Assembly (NCBI GenBank): GCA_963422735.1
Contig: OY730476.1
Location: 4,480,001 to 4,544,000, forward strand
Reading direction: 5' to 3'
From: Candidatus Latescibacterota bacterium
GTDB lineage: Bacteria > Latescibacterota > UBA2968 > UBA8231
Length of the DNA: 64,000 nucleotides
The position numbers and the translations under genes were made by a program. The stretch's first letter is position 1; each line of letters starts with the position of its first letter. Of this stretch, positions 24,486-29,332 are shown piece after piece. The notes below the pieces were generated by a model. That model was not told where the DNA came from, did not search any database, and was given only the letters and a program-made list of their open reading frames with translations.

Positions 24486-25712
24486 ATGGTACATCTCAAC
24501 GATCACTACCTCAAGCTCAAAGCCGGGTACCTCTTTCCAGAAATCGCCCGCCGGGTCGATGCATTTGCCGCCGCTCACCCCCAAGCCGATGTGATCCGCT
24601 TGGGGATCGGCGACGTGGTCAAGGGCTTACCGCGGCCGATCGTCGATGCGATGAAAGAGGCCGTCGAGGAAATGGCCCACGACGACACCTTACAGGGCTA
24701 TCCGCCCGATCAAGGCCAGGAATTTTTGCGCGCAGTCATTGCCGAGCACGACTTTGGCGCGTGCGGTGTGCAGATTCACAGCGATGAGATTTTTGTCTCC
24801 GACGGATCCAAATGCGACTCGGGCAATGTGCAAGAAATTTTCGCCGACGATTGCGTAGTCGCGCTGACCGATCCGGTCTATCCAGTGTACTGCGATTCCA
24901 ATGTCATGGCCGGCCGCACCGGCCCAGCCGATGCGAGCGGTTCGTACGCCGGCTTGATCTACATGCCGTGTACGGCCGCCAATGCCTTCATCCCGCACCT
25001 GCCTGCAGGCCATGTCGATCTGATCTACTTGTGCTCGCCTAACAACCCTACGGGCGCGGTGATGACCCGCGACGCTTTGGCCCGCTGGATTGAATACGCC
25101 CGGCGGGAACAGGCCGTCATTCTATTTGACGCAGCCTACGAGAGCTACATCACCGATCCGTCAATCCCGCACTCCATCTACGAGGTCGAAGGCGGTCGGG
25201 AAGTGGCCATCGAGTTCCGCAGTTTTTCCAAGAACGCTGGCTTTACCGGCCTGCGCTGCGGGTACACTGTGGTGCCGAAGGATCTCAAGGGCCGCGCCGC
25301 CTCGGGCGAGGAAGTGGATTTGCATCGGCTGTGGGCACGGCGGCACTCGACCAAGTTCAACGGCGTGGCGTATCCGGTGCAGCGCGCCGCGGCGGCCGCG
25401 TACTCGTCGGCTGGCCAGCAAGGCATCGCCGAGCGCGTTGCGTTCTACATGGAAAATGCCGCGATCATGCGCCAGCAGTTGGGAGCGGCCGGGCTCACCG
25501 TGTACGGGGGCGAACACGCTCCCTATTTGTGGGTGGCCACGCCCGACGGGCAGGACAGTTGGACCTACTTCGACTACTTGCTCGACAAGGCCTACATCGT
25601 CGGTACGCCGGGTGCGGGTTTTGGCGCGGCTGGCGAGGGCTACTTGCGCCTGTCGGCCTTCAATCACCGCGACCGGATCGAAGAGGCCATGGAGCGGATT
25701 AGCCAGATCTAG
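24486..25712 (+). CDS. dapL: LL-diaminopimelate aminotransferase
   Basis: '[10 protein letters not shown]', 'IRLGIGDV', '[10 protein letters not shown]', 'DPVYPVY', '[14 protein letters not shown]', '[10 protein letters not shown]'. Confidence 0.95.
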
Positions 25713-25784
25713 GTCCGCGTCTCATCTTTCCTTATTGTCGCGGCTGGCTTGCGAAAATTCTGTTAAAAAATGGTTACATATATA

Positions 25785-25813
25785 TTGACGGATCGCCAGC
25801 GATTTATTAGATT
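25785..25813 (+). promoter_or_regulatory. sigma70-type promoter of the RHH-nadA operon
   Basis: TTGACG-N17-TAGATT. Confidence 0.65.
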
Positions 25814-25821
25814 ACGTAGGT

Positions 25822-25853
25822 ATTAATTAAATTTTATATAAAAAATAAATAAT
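25822..25853. promoter_or_regulatory. AT-only imperfect palindrome, candidate operator
   Basis: ATTAATTAAATTTTATATAAAAAATAAATAAT: 13 of 16 symmetric pairs around a perfect TTTTATATAAAA core, between the -10 box and the ATG. Confidence 0.5.
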
Positions 25854-25856
25854 CCC

Positions 25857-26066
25857 ATGCCAACCAAAGATCAGAGTCGCCGGGCCAAGGTGCGGACCTT
25901 TTCGGCGCCCGATAGGGATCACGAGATGCTCGACGCGATTGCCCGCTATCACGGCAGCAGCAAGAGTGCCATGATAGCCGGCCTCATTCGCAAGGAGTTT
26001 TGGCGCATTTTTCCCAACGGCACCGAGACCATCCTCCCCGACGAAGGAGCACAAGTCAAGCCATGA
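25857..26066 (+). CDS. Small ribbon-helix-helix (CopG-like) DNA-binding protein
   Basis: Strand 'VRTFSAP', helix 'DHEMLDAIARYHG', helix 'SKSAMIAGLIRKEF'; ATGA overlap with nadA. Confidence 0.7.
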   Translation: MPTKDQSRRAKVRTFSAPDRDHEMLDAIARYHGSSKSAMIAGLIRKEFWRIFPNGTETILPDEGAQVKP

Positions 26067-27049
26067 CCTACTCAGAGACGCTTGCCCCAGCCGCTGGGCA
26101 GTACCACAGCGACCTGCCAGCCGAGGAGATCATCGCCCAGATCGACCGCTTGCGCCGCGAGAAAAACGCGGTCATCCTCGCGCACAACTACCAGATCCCG
26201 CCGATCCAAGACTTGGCCGACTTCACGGGCGATTCGCTCGGGCTATCAGTAGAAGCTGCCAAGGCGGATGCCGAGCGCATCGTTTTTTGCGGCGTGCATT
26301 TCATGGCCGAGTCGGCCAAAATCCTCAGCCCCGACAAGCAGGTGTTCTTGCCCCATTTAGGCGCGGGCTGTTCGCTGGCCGACTCCATCACCCCCGAAAG
26401 CCTCGACGATTGGAAAGCGGACTATCCCGATCACGCGGTGGTGACGTATGTCAACTCCACAGCCGAGGTGAAGGCCGAGTCCGACATCTGCTGCACCTCG
26501 GCCAACGCCGTATCGGTGGTGCGCAGCCTCGATAGCGACAAGATCCTCTTTACGCCTGATCGCAACTTGGGTCGCTGGGTGGCCGAGCAGGTGCCGGAGA
26601 AAGAGGTCGTCGTGTACGACGGCGCTTGCCCAACGCACGATGTGCTGCGCGCCGCCAGCGTCGAGCTCACCCGCACTGAGTTTCCCGAGGCCGTTATCAT
26701 CGCGCATCCAGAATGCCGCGAGGACGTGGTCGAGATAGCACACGAAGTGTGCTCGACCACGGGGATGCTCAAGGCCGTGGAAAAGTACCCCGAGGCCAAG
26801 AGCTTCATCATCGCCACGGAAAACGGCATGTTGCACCAGCTTAGGCAGCGCTTCCCGCACCAAGAGTTCGTAGCGGCCGACGGCTGCATTGGCTGCCGGC
26901 TGCACTGTCCCTACATGAAGATCACCGACCTGCAAGACGTGTACTTTTCGCTGCTCTACGAGCGCTACGAAATCAAGCTAGACGACGAGGTGATTGCCGG
27001 GGCGCGGCGGGCGTTGGAGCGGATGATGGCCGTGCCACGGGACAATTGA
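26063..27049 (+). CDS. nadA: Quinolinate synthase A
   Basis: 'ILAHNYQ', 'GDSLGLS', 'FCGVHFMAESAKILSP', 'AGCSLA', 'YVNSTAEVKA', 'CCTSAN', 'AHPEC', 'CPYMK'; start at ATG 26063. Confidence 0.95.
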   Translation: MTYSETLAPAAGQYHSDLPAEEIIAQIDRLRREKNAVILAHNYQIPPIQDLADFTGDSLGLSVEAAKADAERIVFCGVHFMAESAKILSPDKQVFLPHLGAGCSLADSITPESLDDWKADYPDHAVVTYVNSTAEVKAESDICCTSANAVSVVRSLDSDKILFTPDRNLGRWVAEQVPEKEVVVYDGACPTHDVLRAASVELTRTEFPEAVIIAHPECREDVVEIAHEVCSTTGMLKAVEKYPEAKSFIIATENGMLHQLRQRFPHQEFVAADGCIGCRLHCPYMKITDLQDVYFSLLYERYEIKLDDEVIAGARRALERMMAVPRDN

Positions 27050-27061
27050 GCTTTTTTTGGC

Positions 27062-27840
27062 ATAAAGAAAAGAGCACCGAGGAACAGGACGCTCACTTGT
27101 GACGGCGACGAAATCGAGGCTCTTGCGCACGACTTGCTAGTGCTGACCGAGCCGGCGGCACTGGAGCAAATCGCCGATAGAATTATTCACGGGGATGCCT
27201 TCCGCGTCCTTTCCTTATTGCCTACCTGCTTCGCCGATCTCCTCATTCTCGACCCTCCCTACAATCTCACAAAAAATTACAACGGGCACTTATTTCAAGA
27301 AAAAGAGAAAGGCGCGTACGCCGCTTGGTTTGAGGAGTTGGTCTCGCTCCTCAAGCCGACCTTAAAGCCGGATGCAACCGTTTATGTCTGCGCCGACTGG
27401 AAGACGTCACTGCTGGTTGCCCCCGTTCTCGAAAAGCACTTCTGCGTTCACAATCGGATTATTTGGGAGCGAGAAAAAGGGCGCGGCGCGAAATCGAACT
27501 GGAAAAACGACAGCGAAGACATTTGGTTCTGCACTGTGGGATCGACCTATTACTTTGATGTAGAGGCGGTAAAGCTGAAGCGGAAAGTCATTGCTCCATA
27601 TCGAGTCCGATTTTGGGAAGCGGCACCACGGCGGTGGTAGCGCACAAGCTCGGACGCTCGTTCTGCGAGATTGAATTGAAAGGGGAATACTGCTATTGGA
27701 GCCAAAAGCGATTGAAGCGGACCCTTGCCGATCCAGCGATTCAGGGATATGCCGATGGCGTGTTTTGGGAGCGAAATAGCCTGAACGATCAGCCGCAGCA
27801 ATCGGCCGCTTCTATTGAACAAGAAAAATTACTGTTGTGA
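27062..27840 (+). pseudogene. Beta-class N4/N6 DNA methyltransferase, disrupted
   Basis: 'LDPPYN' present; after 'KRKVIAPYR' the target-recognition region is missing and the frame shifts into 'LGSGTTAVVAHKLGR'; probable start codon reads ATA before 'KKRAPRNRTL'. Confidence 0.8.
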
Positions 27841-28385
27841 AATCTATTTCTTACTACGATGGCAGTTACTCGAAAATTGCCAATAAGATAAAGGACTGTA
27901 TTAACAGTGCCCCAGAGTTTCTTTCGCCGGCGACAGCCGACAGCACAAGAGCTGTGGGTGATGCGTTAGAGGTGCTTATTGCCGATAAATTCGGTGATTT
28001 CTTAGGAAGGTGGTGTGCAGAATACTCGAGTGATTTTGCGCGTAGAGCTATGGCTGATTTGGCCTTTACAGACAAGGAGGGCTTCTATTCAGTCGTCGAT
28101 GTAAAAACTCATCGGAAGGACACCAAATTTAACATGCCCAATGTTACATCGGTCGAACGGCTGGCGCGGTTCTACGAATCTGATCAGAATATCTTTGCTC
28201 TGATAATGATTAAATATGCAGTTGAAGGCACGAAAGTTACTGTTACTGAATTTCTCGATTGGAATTGTCTGACGGTTGATGCCTTGGGATGGGACAGATT
28301 CAAATGAGCAACTCCAATGTCATAAACCTTCGAGACGGATATTCCAGAAAGTCGTGGATGCTCGAACTATGCGAAACGATGCGCT
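27837..28385 (+). pseudogene. PD-(D/E)XK restriction-endonuclease-like gene, frameshifted and truncated
   Basis: 'MADLAF...VVDVKTH...FNMPNVTSVERLARFY'; frameshift at 'ALGW/GQIQ', continuing 'MSNSN...YSRKSWMLELCE' into the convergent MTase; adjacent to an MTase. Confidence 0.65.
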
Positions 28386-29332
28386 TTTTCGAAGAGCATC
28401 TGCTGGATCGATTGGACGTCTTTCGCATCTCCCGTTCCGCATTCTGAATTCAACCTCTGTAGTGCGGCTTGATGAAATTCGGGCGCGATCTCAAAGCCTA
28501 TGAAGTGCCTATTGAGTCGCCGCGTGGCAACAGCCGTAGTGCCGCTACCCATGAACGGATCCAATACTACTTGGCCCTCTTGCGTTGTGAGCTTGATCAA
28601 GAACTCGATGAGCTTCAGCGGCTTCTGGGCCTCGTGAATTTTTTGTTCGCCCTTTTGGAAACCAAACGCCAAGAGATTTGTTGGGGTCGCGCCATGGCTC
28701 TGACACGCTTCTATGTTCATGGCTCCTACGCCTTGCTCAAGGATGTTGTCGGCAATAGTTCCGCCGATCTTATAGGGTTTTACGAACCAAGCAATCGGCT
28801 CATATAACGGTGCGAGGTTCCCCAAACGCCAGCCGCGCCACGCTTTGGCTTCTGCTTCTAACCCACGCCTCGCAAAGACAATGCTCACCCTTTGCGCTCG
28901 ATGATGCGCCGACTCTTTCTGCCAAGCGAGCATGTCCTTGAGAAGGAAACCGCTGTCTTCAAAAGCGTTGACGGCGCGGTGGATGGTGCGGCGGGCGCCG
29001 AAAACGAAGAGCGATGCGCCGCACTTCATTTTTGGCAAAAGCCGCTCAATCCAGCTTTGACACCACTGCTGATACTCTCGTCCAATATTCCTATCGGCCT
29101 GCGACCAGCCATTGATGGGCTTGCCTCGCCTCTTAAAGGCCGACTTCCCAGCCTGCGCGGGCGACTGCCCCAACAGCGCCGAGTTCGTATTGTCGTGTAA
29201 GACATCCCAGTCATCTAGGCTGATTCCATAGGGAATGTCCGACAAGAAAAGTTCAATGCTGTTGTCGGCCAAGCGCGAAATGTGATCCCGGCAGTCGCCG
29301 CGTATGATTTTGTCCAAGTACTCCTCGTTCAT
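28367..29332 (-). CDS. M.HindIII-like adenine DNA methyltransferase (intact)
   Basis: 'SDIPYGI..DDWDVLHDNTNSAL', 'FKRRGKPINGWS', 'HRAQR', 'EPIAWFVKPYKIG', 'HEAQKPL', 'LDPFMGSGTT', as recalled for M.HindIII. Confidence 0.88.
   Translation of the reverse strand: MNEEYLDKIIRGDCRDHISRLADNSIELFLSDIPYGISLDDWDVLHDNTNSALLGQSPAQAGKSAFKRRGKPINGWSQADRNIGREYQQWCQSWIERLLPKMKCGASLFVFGARRTIHRAVNAFEDSGFLLKDMLAWQKESAHHRAQRVSIVFARRGLEAEAKAWRGWRLGNLAPLYEPIAWFVKPYKIGGTIADNILEQGVGAMNIEACQSHGATPTNLLAFGFQKGEQKIHEAQKPLKLIEFLIKLTTQEGQVVLDPFMGSGTTAVATRRLNRHFIGFEIAPEFHQAALQRLNSECGTGDAKDVQSIQQMLFEKAHRFA

Follow-up and report, generated by a model that had tools for sequence, protein, structure and literature searches.

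In a 64,000-nt stretch of the genome of a Candidatus Latescibacterota bacterium (hereafter, the window), a gene for a 69-amino-acid (69-aa) protein lies directly upstream of nadA, which encodes quinolinate synthase of nicotinamide adenine dinucleotide (NAD) synthesis. The protein is predicted to have a ribbon-helix-helix (RHH) fold, and we refer to its gene as rhh. We found that rhh is consistently linked to nadA in other genomes and is preceded by a periodic array of palindromic boxes. We consider it likely, from sequence comparison and structure modeling, that the protein is a CopG-like autorepressor of the rhh-nadA operon that would bind this array. An initial annotation of the window had proposed an autoregulatory repressor of quinolinate synthesis at this place, and the comparisons described below support that proposal.

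rhh is linked to a distinct subgroup of nadA

The second open reading frame (ORF) of the operon is quinolinate synthase (nadA), matching Pfam PF02445 (E 1e-117) and NCBIfam NF006878 (410.7 bits, cut-off 294). Using tblastn with one genome per species, we found nadA directly downstream of the rhh homologue in 79 of 80 loci, many of them closely related to one another, with 0-81 nt between the hits. By label, most of these 80 loci belong to Latescibacterota or Gemmatimonadota; some are Blastocatellia/Acidobacteriota, and single loci have other labels. The same order was found in all 20 loci of relatives, and in 70 of 80 loci of a more divergent, mostly soil metagenome branch. As for the other ten metagenome loci, five end less than 200 nt past the gene, four continue with a periplasmic binding protein and one with another ORF. 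The initial annotation had named a lack of linkage to nad genes as refuting its proposal; on this point the outcome is in its favour, in genome and metagenome loci alike. In one metagenome locus (L127:585-1316), the RHH gene is followed by a fragment of a GFO/IDH/MocA-type oxidoreductase rather than nadA; this contig may be rearranged.

The two genes are also closely joined. The RHH stop codon and the nadA start overlap by 1, 4 or 8 nt in 46 of 47 loci, where the start was taken as the ATG nearest to the aligned start. NadA proteins encoded next to rhh are 72-98% identical to the window's NadA in related genomes and 64-85% identical in other loci, as against only 40-53% for NadA from f2 and f4, two families within the same class that lack rhh. 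Among 61 related genomes, 37 carry the 69-aa protein (33 of 36 in family f1, 3 of 3 in f3, 0 of 18 in f2 and 0 of 3 in f4). Judged by these comparisons, rhh and nadA behave like a cassette that is inherited as a unit and has a NadA subgroup of its own. The other two genes of the pathway stand apart, in line with the initial annotation: nadB (C1:1373500-1374972) is 3.1 Mb and nadC (C1:3968358-3969164) 0.5 Mb from nadA (C1:4506063).

A candidate operator array occupies the rhh-nadA leader

The features of the operon are given in Table 1. The promoter, the AT-only run, the small ORF and the ATGA overlap with nadA, all listed in the initial annotation, were confirmed by direct reading; its palindrome in the AT-only stretch was confirmed too. 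The segment 25400-27400 contains one sigma-70-like match, and shuffled sequence gives a mean of 0.8. Because a single match is no better than the shuffles, the promoter call rests on conservation: of 56 diverse regions upstream of orthologues, 49 have TTGAC ahead of the boxes.

Table 1. Features of the rhh-nadA operon in the window
Feature	Position	Strand	Remarks
-35-like hexamer TTGACG	25785..25790	+	read directly; TTGAC conserved upstream of orthologues
-10-like hexamer TAGATT	25808..25813	+	17-nt spacer after TTGACG; module recurs before TonB-dependent receptor gene in same-genus genomes
Extended palindrome over three boxes	25819..25856	.	arms 25819-25840 / 25835-25856, 22 nt, 82% complementary; centre TTATATAA
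G/C-free run	25821..25853		33 bp
Box 1, TTAATTAA	25823..25830	.	perfect 8-bp palindrome; in the genome's top-scoring three-box array
Box 2, TTATATAA	25834..25841	.	perfect palindrome, array centre; recurs upstream of orthologues
Box 3, ATAAATAA	25845..25852	.	degenerate; 11 bp past box 2, 5 nt before start codon
69-aa RHH protein ORF	25857..26066	+	ATG 25857, TGA 26064-26066
nadA, quinolinate synthase, 328 aa	26063..27049	+	start overlaps RHH stop (ATGA)

The G/C-free run is the longest AT-only run in the 4,953,052-bp genome (59.5% G+C), which contains only eight such runs of at least 20 bp, and its occurrence is beyond chance. Within it, the boxes follow the consensus TTAnnTAA with the core TTATATAA, spaced at 11 bp; at the position of box 3, relatives have TTATATAA or nnATATAA. 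The spacing is strongly preferred among box pairs with at least 7 of 8 matches, 35 of which are 11 bp apart, 9 are 22 bp and 3 are 33 bp apart, and any other distance occurs at most twice. We then counted boxes in the 130 nt upstream of 56 diverse loci, a set that excludes the near relatives of the window, and in 2867 equal-size background windows from the same loci. A box (at least 7/8) was present in 41 of the 56 loci and an 11-bp pair in 21, compared with 38 and 0 in the background. In the metagenome branch, the box occurred in 68 of 74 loci and the pair in 29.

The array is also close to unique in the genomes that carry it. In the window's genome, the three-box array scores 20 out of 24, the best of all, and the next-best unrelated site scores 18. 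An exact scan for TTATATAA returned 20 sites in this genome, none other with flanking boxes. The two-box pattern, allowing at most one mismatch, was also sought in five genomes of other phyla (4.4-7.6 Mb); it was found solely upstream of rhh-nadA, and the reversed control gave 0. For the AT stretch, which the initial annotation proposed as the binding site (25822-25853), the comparison likewise comes out in favour: it has a conserved, periodic, operator-like array that recurs upstream of the orthologues and occurs almost nowhere else. The upstream regions of nadB and nadC lack a similar array in the genome-wide scoring. By these scans, the operon itself is the only predicted target in the window's genome.

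In the group of the window, the boxes take up the interval from the -10 hexamer to the ATG; in Blastocatellia, they overlap the -10. There is no Shine-Dalgarno sequence before the RHH ATG at 25857, and in orthologues the final operator box often runs into the ATG (…TTATATATG). Since the last box reaches the ATG in many orthologues, the whole leader would be operator. A covariance-model search with Rfam gave no match at E<=1 in 25000-27500, and hence no NAD+-I riboswitch; the same search of 20 loci gave a single tRNA at gathering score and no riboswitch. RNA-library contigs from X15, X16, X17 and X8 cross the RHH-nadA junction, and none among the matches listed spans 25813-25840. Such records are contigs that may contain DNA, mostly from relatives of 90-95% identity, and prove neither a transcript nor its start.

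The boxes further vary together with one residue of the predicted DNA-binding strand. Position 12 of the protein aligns with R4 of CopG, a residue that contacts DNA bases. With V at this position, TTATATAA (at least 7/8) was present in 93 of 96 loci, and with I in 29 of 30; the fraction was 5 of 12 with P and 0 of 7 with S. The P and S clades have TTAATTAA or TTAnnTAA variants, as read by eye. The direction of this covariation is the one expected if the ribbon reads the DNA directly.

The 69-aa protein is predicted to be a ribbon-helix-helix protein near CopG

We modeled the protein using AlphaFold2 with an alignment of 57 diverse rows and obtained an extended segment at residues 11-18 (pLDDT ~81), a helix at 19-32, a three-residue turn at G33 and a second helix at 36-51, with a mean pLDDT of 76. 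These correspond to the parts of an RHH protein, namely the strand (~11-17), helix A (19-32), the G33-S-S loop and helix B (36-51), which are followed here by a conserved tail (52-64). A Foldseek search of the PDB placed CopG first, with a root-mean-square deviation of 0.9 A over 37 columns, 35% identity and a probability of 0.97. Further matches were the Rv0298 antitoxin, Arc, AmrZ, MazE, ParG, omega, NikR and MatP, and nearly all of the top ~50 are RHH proteins. The RHH-like assignment made in the initial annotation is thus supported by both the model and the structure search.

Sequence comparison points the same way. Searched by sequence against the PDB, the family profile again finds CopG first (E 0.15-0.5). 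The two stay in register along the strand, through helix A and the turn and into helix B, and the loop/helix-B stretch GxSKSAMI is common to both. A G-x-S/T/N turn that caps helix B is a signature of RHH proteins. In the family, the turn G-S/T-S-K-S-A aligns with G-L-S-K-S-A of CopG; G33 is invariant in 29 sequences and conserved in at least 90% of alignment A6, and S35 is conserved in at least 90% of the 29 sequences. Three remote members match Pfam NikA-like at 29.6 bits (cut-off 27) or RHH_1 just under its cut-off (14.8-20.2 bits, cut-off 20.5), and in the ESM-Atlas, the closest clusters that have a name all belong to RHH families (RHH_1, RHH_3 and RHH_5). The 69-aa protein itself does not reach the Pfam RHH_1 (PF01402) gathering threshold of 20.5 bits; the same model finds two other proteins in the genome. 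Taken together, the modeling supports the view that the protein belongs to the RHH superfamily, nearest to CopG and outside Pfam RHH_1.

A word-indexed search returned 156 homologues of 62-108 aa with 67-91% identity, all named 'hypothetical' or automatically at source. Exact look-up likewise gave 'hypothetical protein' throughout, the one addition being an automatic UniRef name that refers to a CopG domain. When 1.84 billion cluster representatives were searched with the family profile, no more than 48 reached E<=1e-3, which marks the family as small and sharply bounded. The alignment of 29 sequences has 21 invariant columns. The protein has a basic N-terminal arm and no cysteine, and some 20 residues past the minimal RHH hardly vary from phylum to phylum (R45 K46 E47 F48 W49 R50, F52 P53, G55 T56).

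Several profile hits are unusual in build. P0123 has 3500 aa with 20 matched stretches; P0157 has 536 aa with seven repeats resembling the strand region; and P0135 joins a cytidylyltransferase-like N-terminus to the C-terminal half of an RHH protein and may come from a chimeric contig. No locus was returned when the metagenomes were scanned with the distant pair P0148/P0158.

In other lineages, the boxes also precede genes of uptake systems

We searched 61 relatives for the 19-mer formed by box 1, 3 nt and box 2 and found 33 sites in 23 genomes, with 2 in the reversed control. In 14 genomes of the same genus, a second site lies far from rhh-nadA. We retrieved 12 of these second sites (loci L188-L199; genomes G001, G003, G005, G008-G012, G020-G022 and G029), and all 12 consist of TTGACG, the spacer, TAGATT and the boxes upstream of a TonB-dependent receptor gene. 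The receptor has 883-887 aa with CarbopepD_reg_2 and Plug domains, and its gene has a leader of ~45 nt with GGAGG; one of the 12 is truncated where its contig stops. In the single locus examined for this, the receptor gene is monocistronic. The window's genome has no orthologue of the receptor, its best match being 32% over the N-terminus.

A different uptake system was found in a soil lineage. At L095 and four metagenome loci (L159, L161, L181 and L184), an RHH gene with the tail motif and TTATATAA boxes overlaps the start of a Peripla_BP_6 binding-protein gene. At L095:3989-7228, the Peripla_BP_6 gene is followed by a BPD_transp_2 permease, as in an operon for a Liv-type ATP-binding cassette (ABC) transporter. 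The metagenome-assembled genome (MAG) of L095, fragmented and 4.4 Mb in size, has one RHH copy, and a NAPRTase was found in it.

Proposed mechanism

From the linkage, the predicted fold and the box array with its uniqueness, we infer DNA binding, repression, cooperativity and an effector. Two or three RHH dimers would line up next to each other along a single DNA face, on 8-bp boxes 11 bp apart from centre to centre, and the bound dimers would shut the promoter of their own bicistronic rhh-nadA message. The overlapping stop and start codons would couple NadA to synthesis of the repressor, so that the loop could set how much quinolinate synthase is made. The module would also drive the TonB-dependent outer-membrane receptor in relatives of the same genus, and in a soil lineage the repressor gene heads the operon of the Liv-type ABC transporter.

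If the repressor binds DNA, we lean slightly toward its responding to a metabolite of the NAD pathway, by analogy with known regulators. This is somewhat likelier than a ligand-free clamp because the make-up of the regulon resembles that of NiaR and because about 20 extra residues are nearly invariant. The candidate sensing site is the invariant surface formed by the end of helix B and the tail (R45 K46 E47 F48 W49 R50. F52 P53. G55 T56). More tentatively, and with somewhat less than even confidence, we suggest that the proteins may form a fifth, minimal (~70-residue) RHH family of NAD regulators that senses a pyridine precursor or nucleotide via RKEFWRxFPxGT, with a regulon that marks two undescribed precursor uptake routes.

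Alternative explanations

The most serious alternative is a ligand-free homeostat of the CopG-RepB type, in which the RHH protein binds the boxes just as in the reading preferred above, but senses nothing, clamps output and buffers dosage or noise. CopG autoregulates the copG-repB operon with no known effector, and it is the closest structural match of the 69-aa protein. The operon is the sole target found in the window's genome and in the five genomes of other phyla, and the near-universal stop-start overlap would keep RHH in fixed proportion to NadA. However, the same repressor-operator pair occurs at the TonB-dependent receptor and the ABC transporter, which a pure clamp on NadA does not explain, and the nearly invariant residues past the minimal RHH suggest an additional function. 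We regard the homeostat as less likely than not.

A second alternative resembles a toxin-antitoxin loop, in which the tail binds NadA, perhaps distinguishing its apo from its holo Fe-S form, and the complex alters operator occupancy. The layout is like that of RHH antitoxin-toxin operons, with a small RHH protein bearing a tail, overlapping genes and autoregulation; several of the top fold matches are antitoxins, and the NadA linked to RHH is a distinct, highly conserved group. Nevertheless, the REFWRxFPxGT tail and the boxes are kept where the ABC transporter replaces nadA, in a MAG where NadA was not found, and the protein lacks cysteine. Sensing through NadA or its Fe-S state, one of the possibilities raised in the initial annotation, thus gained no support; we consider it very improbable, and the least likely among the metabolite-responsive, ligand-free and NadA-sensing readings. 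Even less credit is due to the reading in which the protein does not bind DNA but serves this NadA clade as an accessory subunit or in assembly, with the AT stretch as a promoter/leader that loads ribosomes without a Shine-Dalgarno sequence. It would suit the lack of significant matches to DNA-binding family models, the tight gene coupling, the inheritance together with a NadA group of its own and the missing Shine-Dalgarno sequence before the ATG. Against it, the structures matched by the fold search are RHH repressors, and the boxes are palindromes with an 11-bp period that covary with a strand residue. The gene also occurs without nadA, and a receptor gene with its own GGAGG and 45-nt leader is preceded by the module as well.

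Several observations weigh against the autorepressor that we prefer. As to the protein, it matches no Pfam family at E<=1 and gives only a chance 11.7-bit match in NCBIfam. AlphaFold2 run on 29 near-identical rows yielded a single continuous helix at 18-51. The Foldseek E-values are all at least 0.58 and the PDB sequence E is above 0.1, which is non-significant and expected for ~40 aligned residues. As to the operator, 15 of the 56 diverse loci are without a box at 7/8, and the other AT-rich palindromes there were read by eye only. The covariation with residue 12 involves few clades, and its counts are not independent. AT-rich boxes beside the -10 could partly reflect promoter or leader composition. 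As to the wider regulon, the receptor module is alike over ~70 nt including the spacer, and may be a recently duplicated regulatory cassette rather than a case of independent conservation. In the L095 MAG, NadA and nadC were not found and nadB had no match above the cut-off, which is weak evidence in a fragmented MAG. Finally, the support is wholly computational, and most of the data would be explained just as well by a ligand-free loop.

Comparison with known systems

In CopG-type control, copG opens an operon of two genes, and CopG bound to an array along one DNA face represses this operon. CopG (RepA) of plasmid pMV158, a member of RHH_1/PF01402, is like the 69-aa protein in size class, in its beta-alpha-alpha layout and in GxSKSAMI. 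Unlike CopG, the family described here has ~20 extra conserved C-terminal residues, a basic N-terminal arm and no significant Pfam match; it is chromosomal, is coupled to a biosynthetic enzyme instead of a replication initiator, and is associated with TTAnnTAA boxes at 11 bp. Arc and Mnt of phage P22 have the RHH fold in common with it, at 14-21% identity in the fold alignment. They bind as a dimer of dimers to two half-sites ~11 bp apart, the same spacing as that of the boxes here; in contrast to these proteins of phage immunity, there are up to three boxes and the target gene is metabolic.

RHH antitoxins are similar in being a small RHH protein with a tail, encoded first in an overlapping operon with presumed autorepression, and they are among the fold matches. 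A type II toxin-antitoxin module was considered and rejected because the downstream gene is NadA (E 1e-117) or a transporter, not a toxin. The NAD+-I riboswitch (nadA motif) controls nadA from the 5' leader in some Acidobacteria. It shares a phylum with the Blastocatellia loci, but is an RNA element and has no Rfam match here.

Among protein regulators of NAD synthesis, NiaR is a helix-turn-helix (HTH) and 3H-domain protein, NadR combines HTH, NMNAT and kinase domains, and NrtR is described as Nudix-like with a winged helix. NadR, NrtR and NadQ also repress genes of NAD synthesis or salvage; they are large multidomain proteins, unrelated to the 69-aa protein in sequence or fold. Niacin-responsive NiaR (YrxA) is like the rhh family in the logic of its regulon, which joins a de novo gene and uptake systems; unlike NiaR, the 69-aa protein has no Pfam family match. 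None of the effector and DNA-binding domains of NiaR, NadR, NrtR and NadQ was found in the 69-aa protein using Pfam and NCBIfam. In the excerpted text of PMC2330245, the NiaR regulon comprises nadABC and niacin transporters, with a self-regulated niaR-niaP operon, and transporter-only regulons are given for species without the de novo pathway. The excerpted text of PMC12421817 (2025) names four transcription-factor types for bacterial NAD synthesis, namely NadR, NiaR, NrtR and NadQ. This list, as excerpted, is in line with the point made in the initial annotation that the NAD regulators known so far are not small RHH proteins.

In a literature search with subscription journals and supplements outside its reach, no paper was found that ties an RHH/CopG protein to nadA or NAD biosynthesis. 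Both fold and repression mode would be classical; the pairing with a housekeeping cofactor-synthesis gene appears to be undescribed and is conserved across three phylum labels.

Region downstream of nadA

Right after nadA, the segment 27134-30241 has a G+C content of 0.42-0.53, compared with ~0.60, and looks like a restriction-modification island. The ORFs at 27134-27640 and 27613-27840 each match part of N6_N4_Mtase and have the appearance of a single methylase gene broken by a frameshift. A weak match to HincII endonuclease (E 0.01) was found for the ORF at 27837-28307, and a 321-aa ORF lies on the minus strand at 28367-29332, within the low-G+C stretch.

Implications for control of NAD synthesis

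The loci examined (Latescibacterota, Gemmatimonadota and Blastocatellia, almost all known from metagenomes) suggest none of the four known regulator types. If the proposed repressor is real, this gap would be filled by a very small, easily purified regulator with a defined operator. The operator would also provide a handle for predicting transporters of NAD precursors, as regulon analysis did for NiaP. If the more tentative reading of the regulon holds, the uptake routes would be the TonB-dependent receptor in sponge-associated Latescibacterota and the Liv-type ABC transporter in soil bacteria. More generally, a housekeeping enzyme gene would travel with its own repressor as a conserved cassette, in keeping with the 64-98% identity of RHH-linked NadA across phylum labels compared with 40-53% for NadA of RHH-less families.

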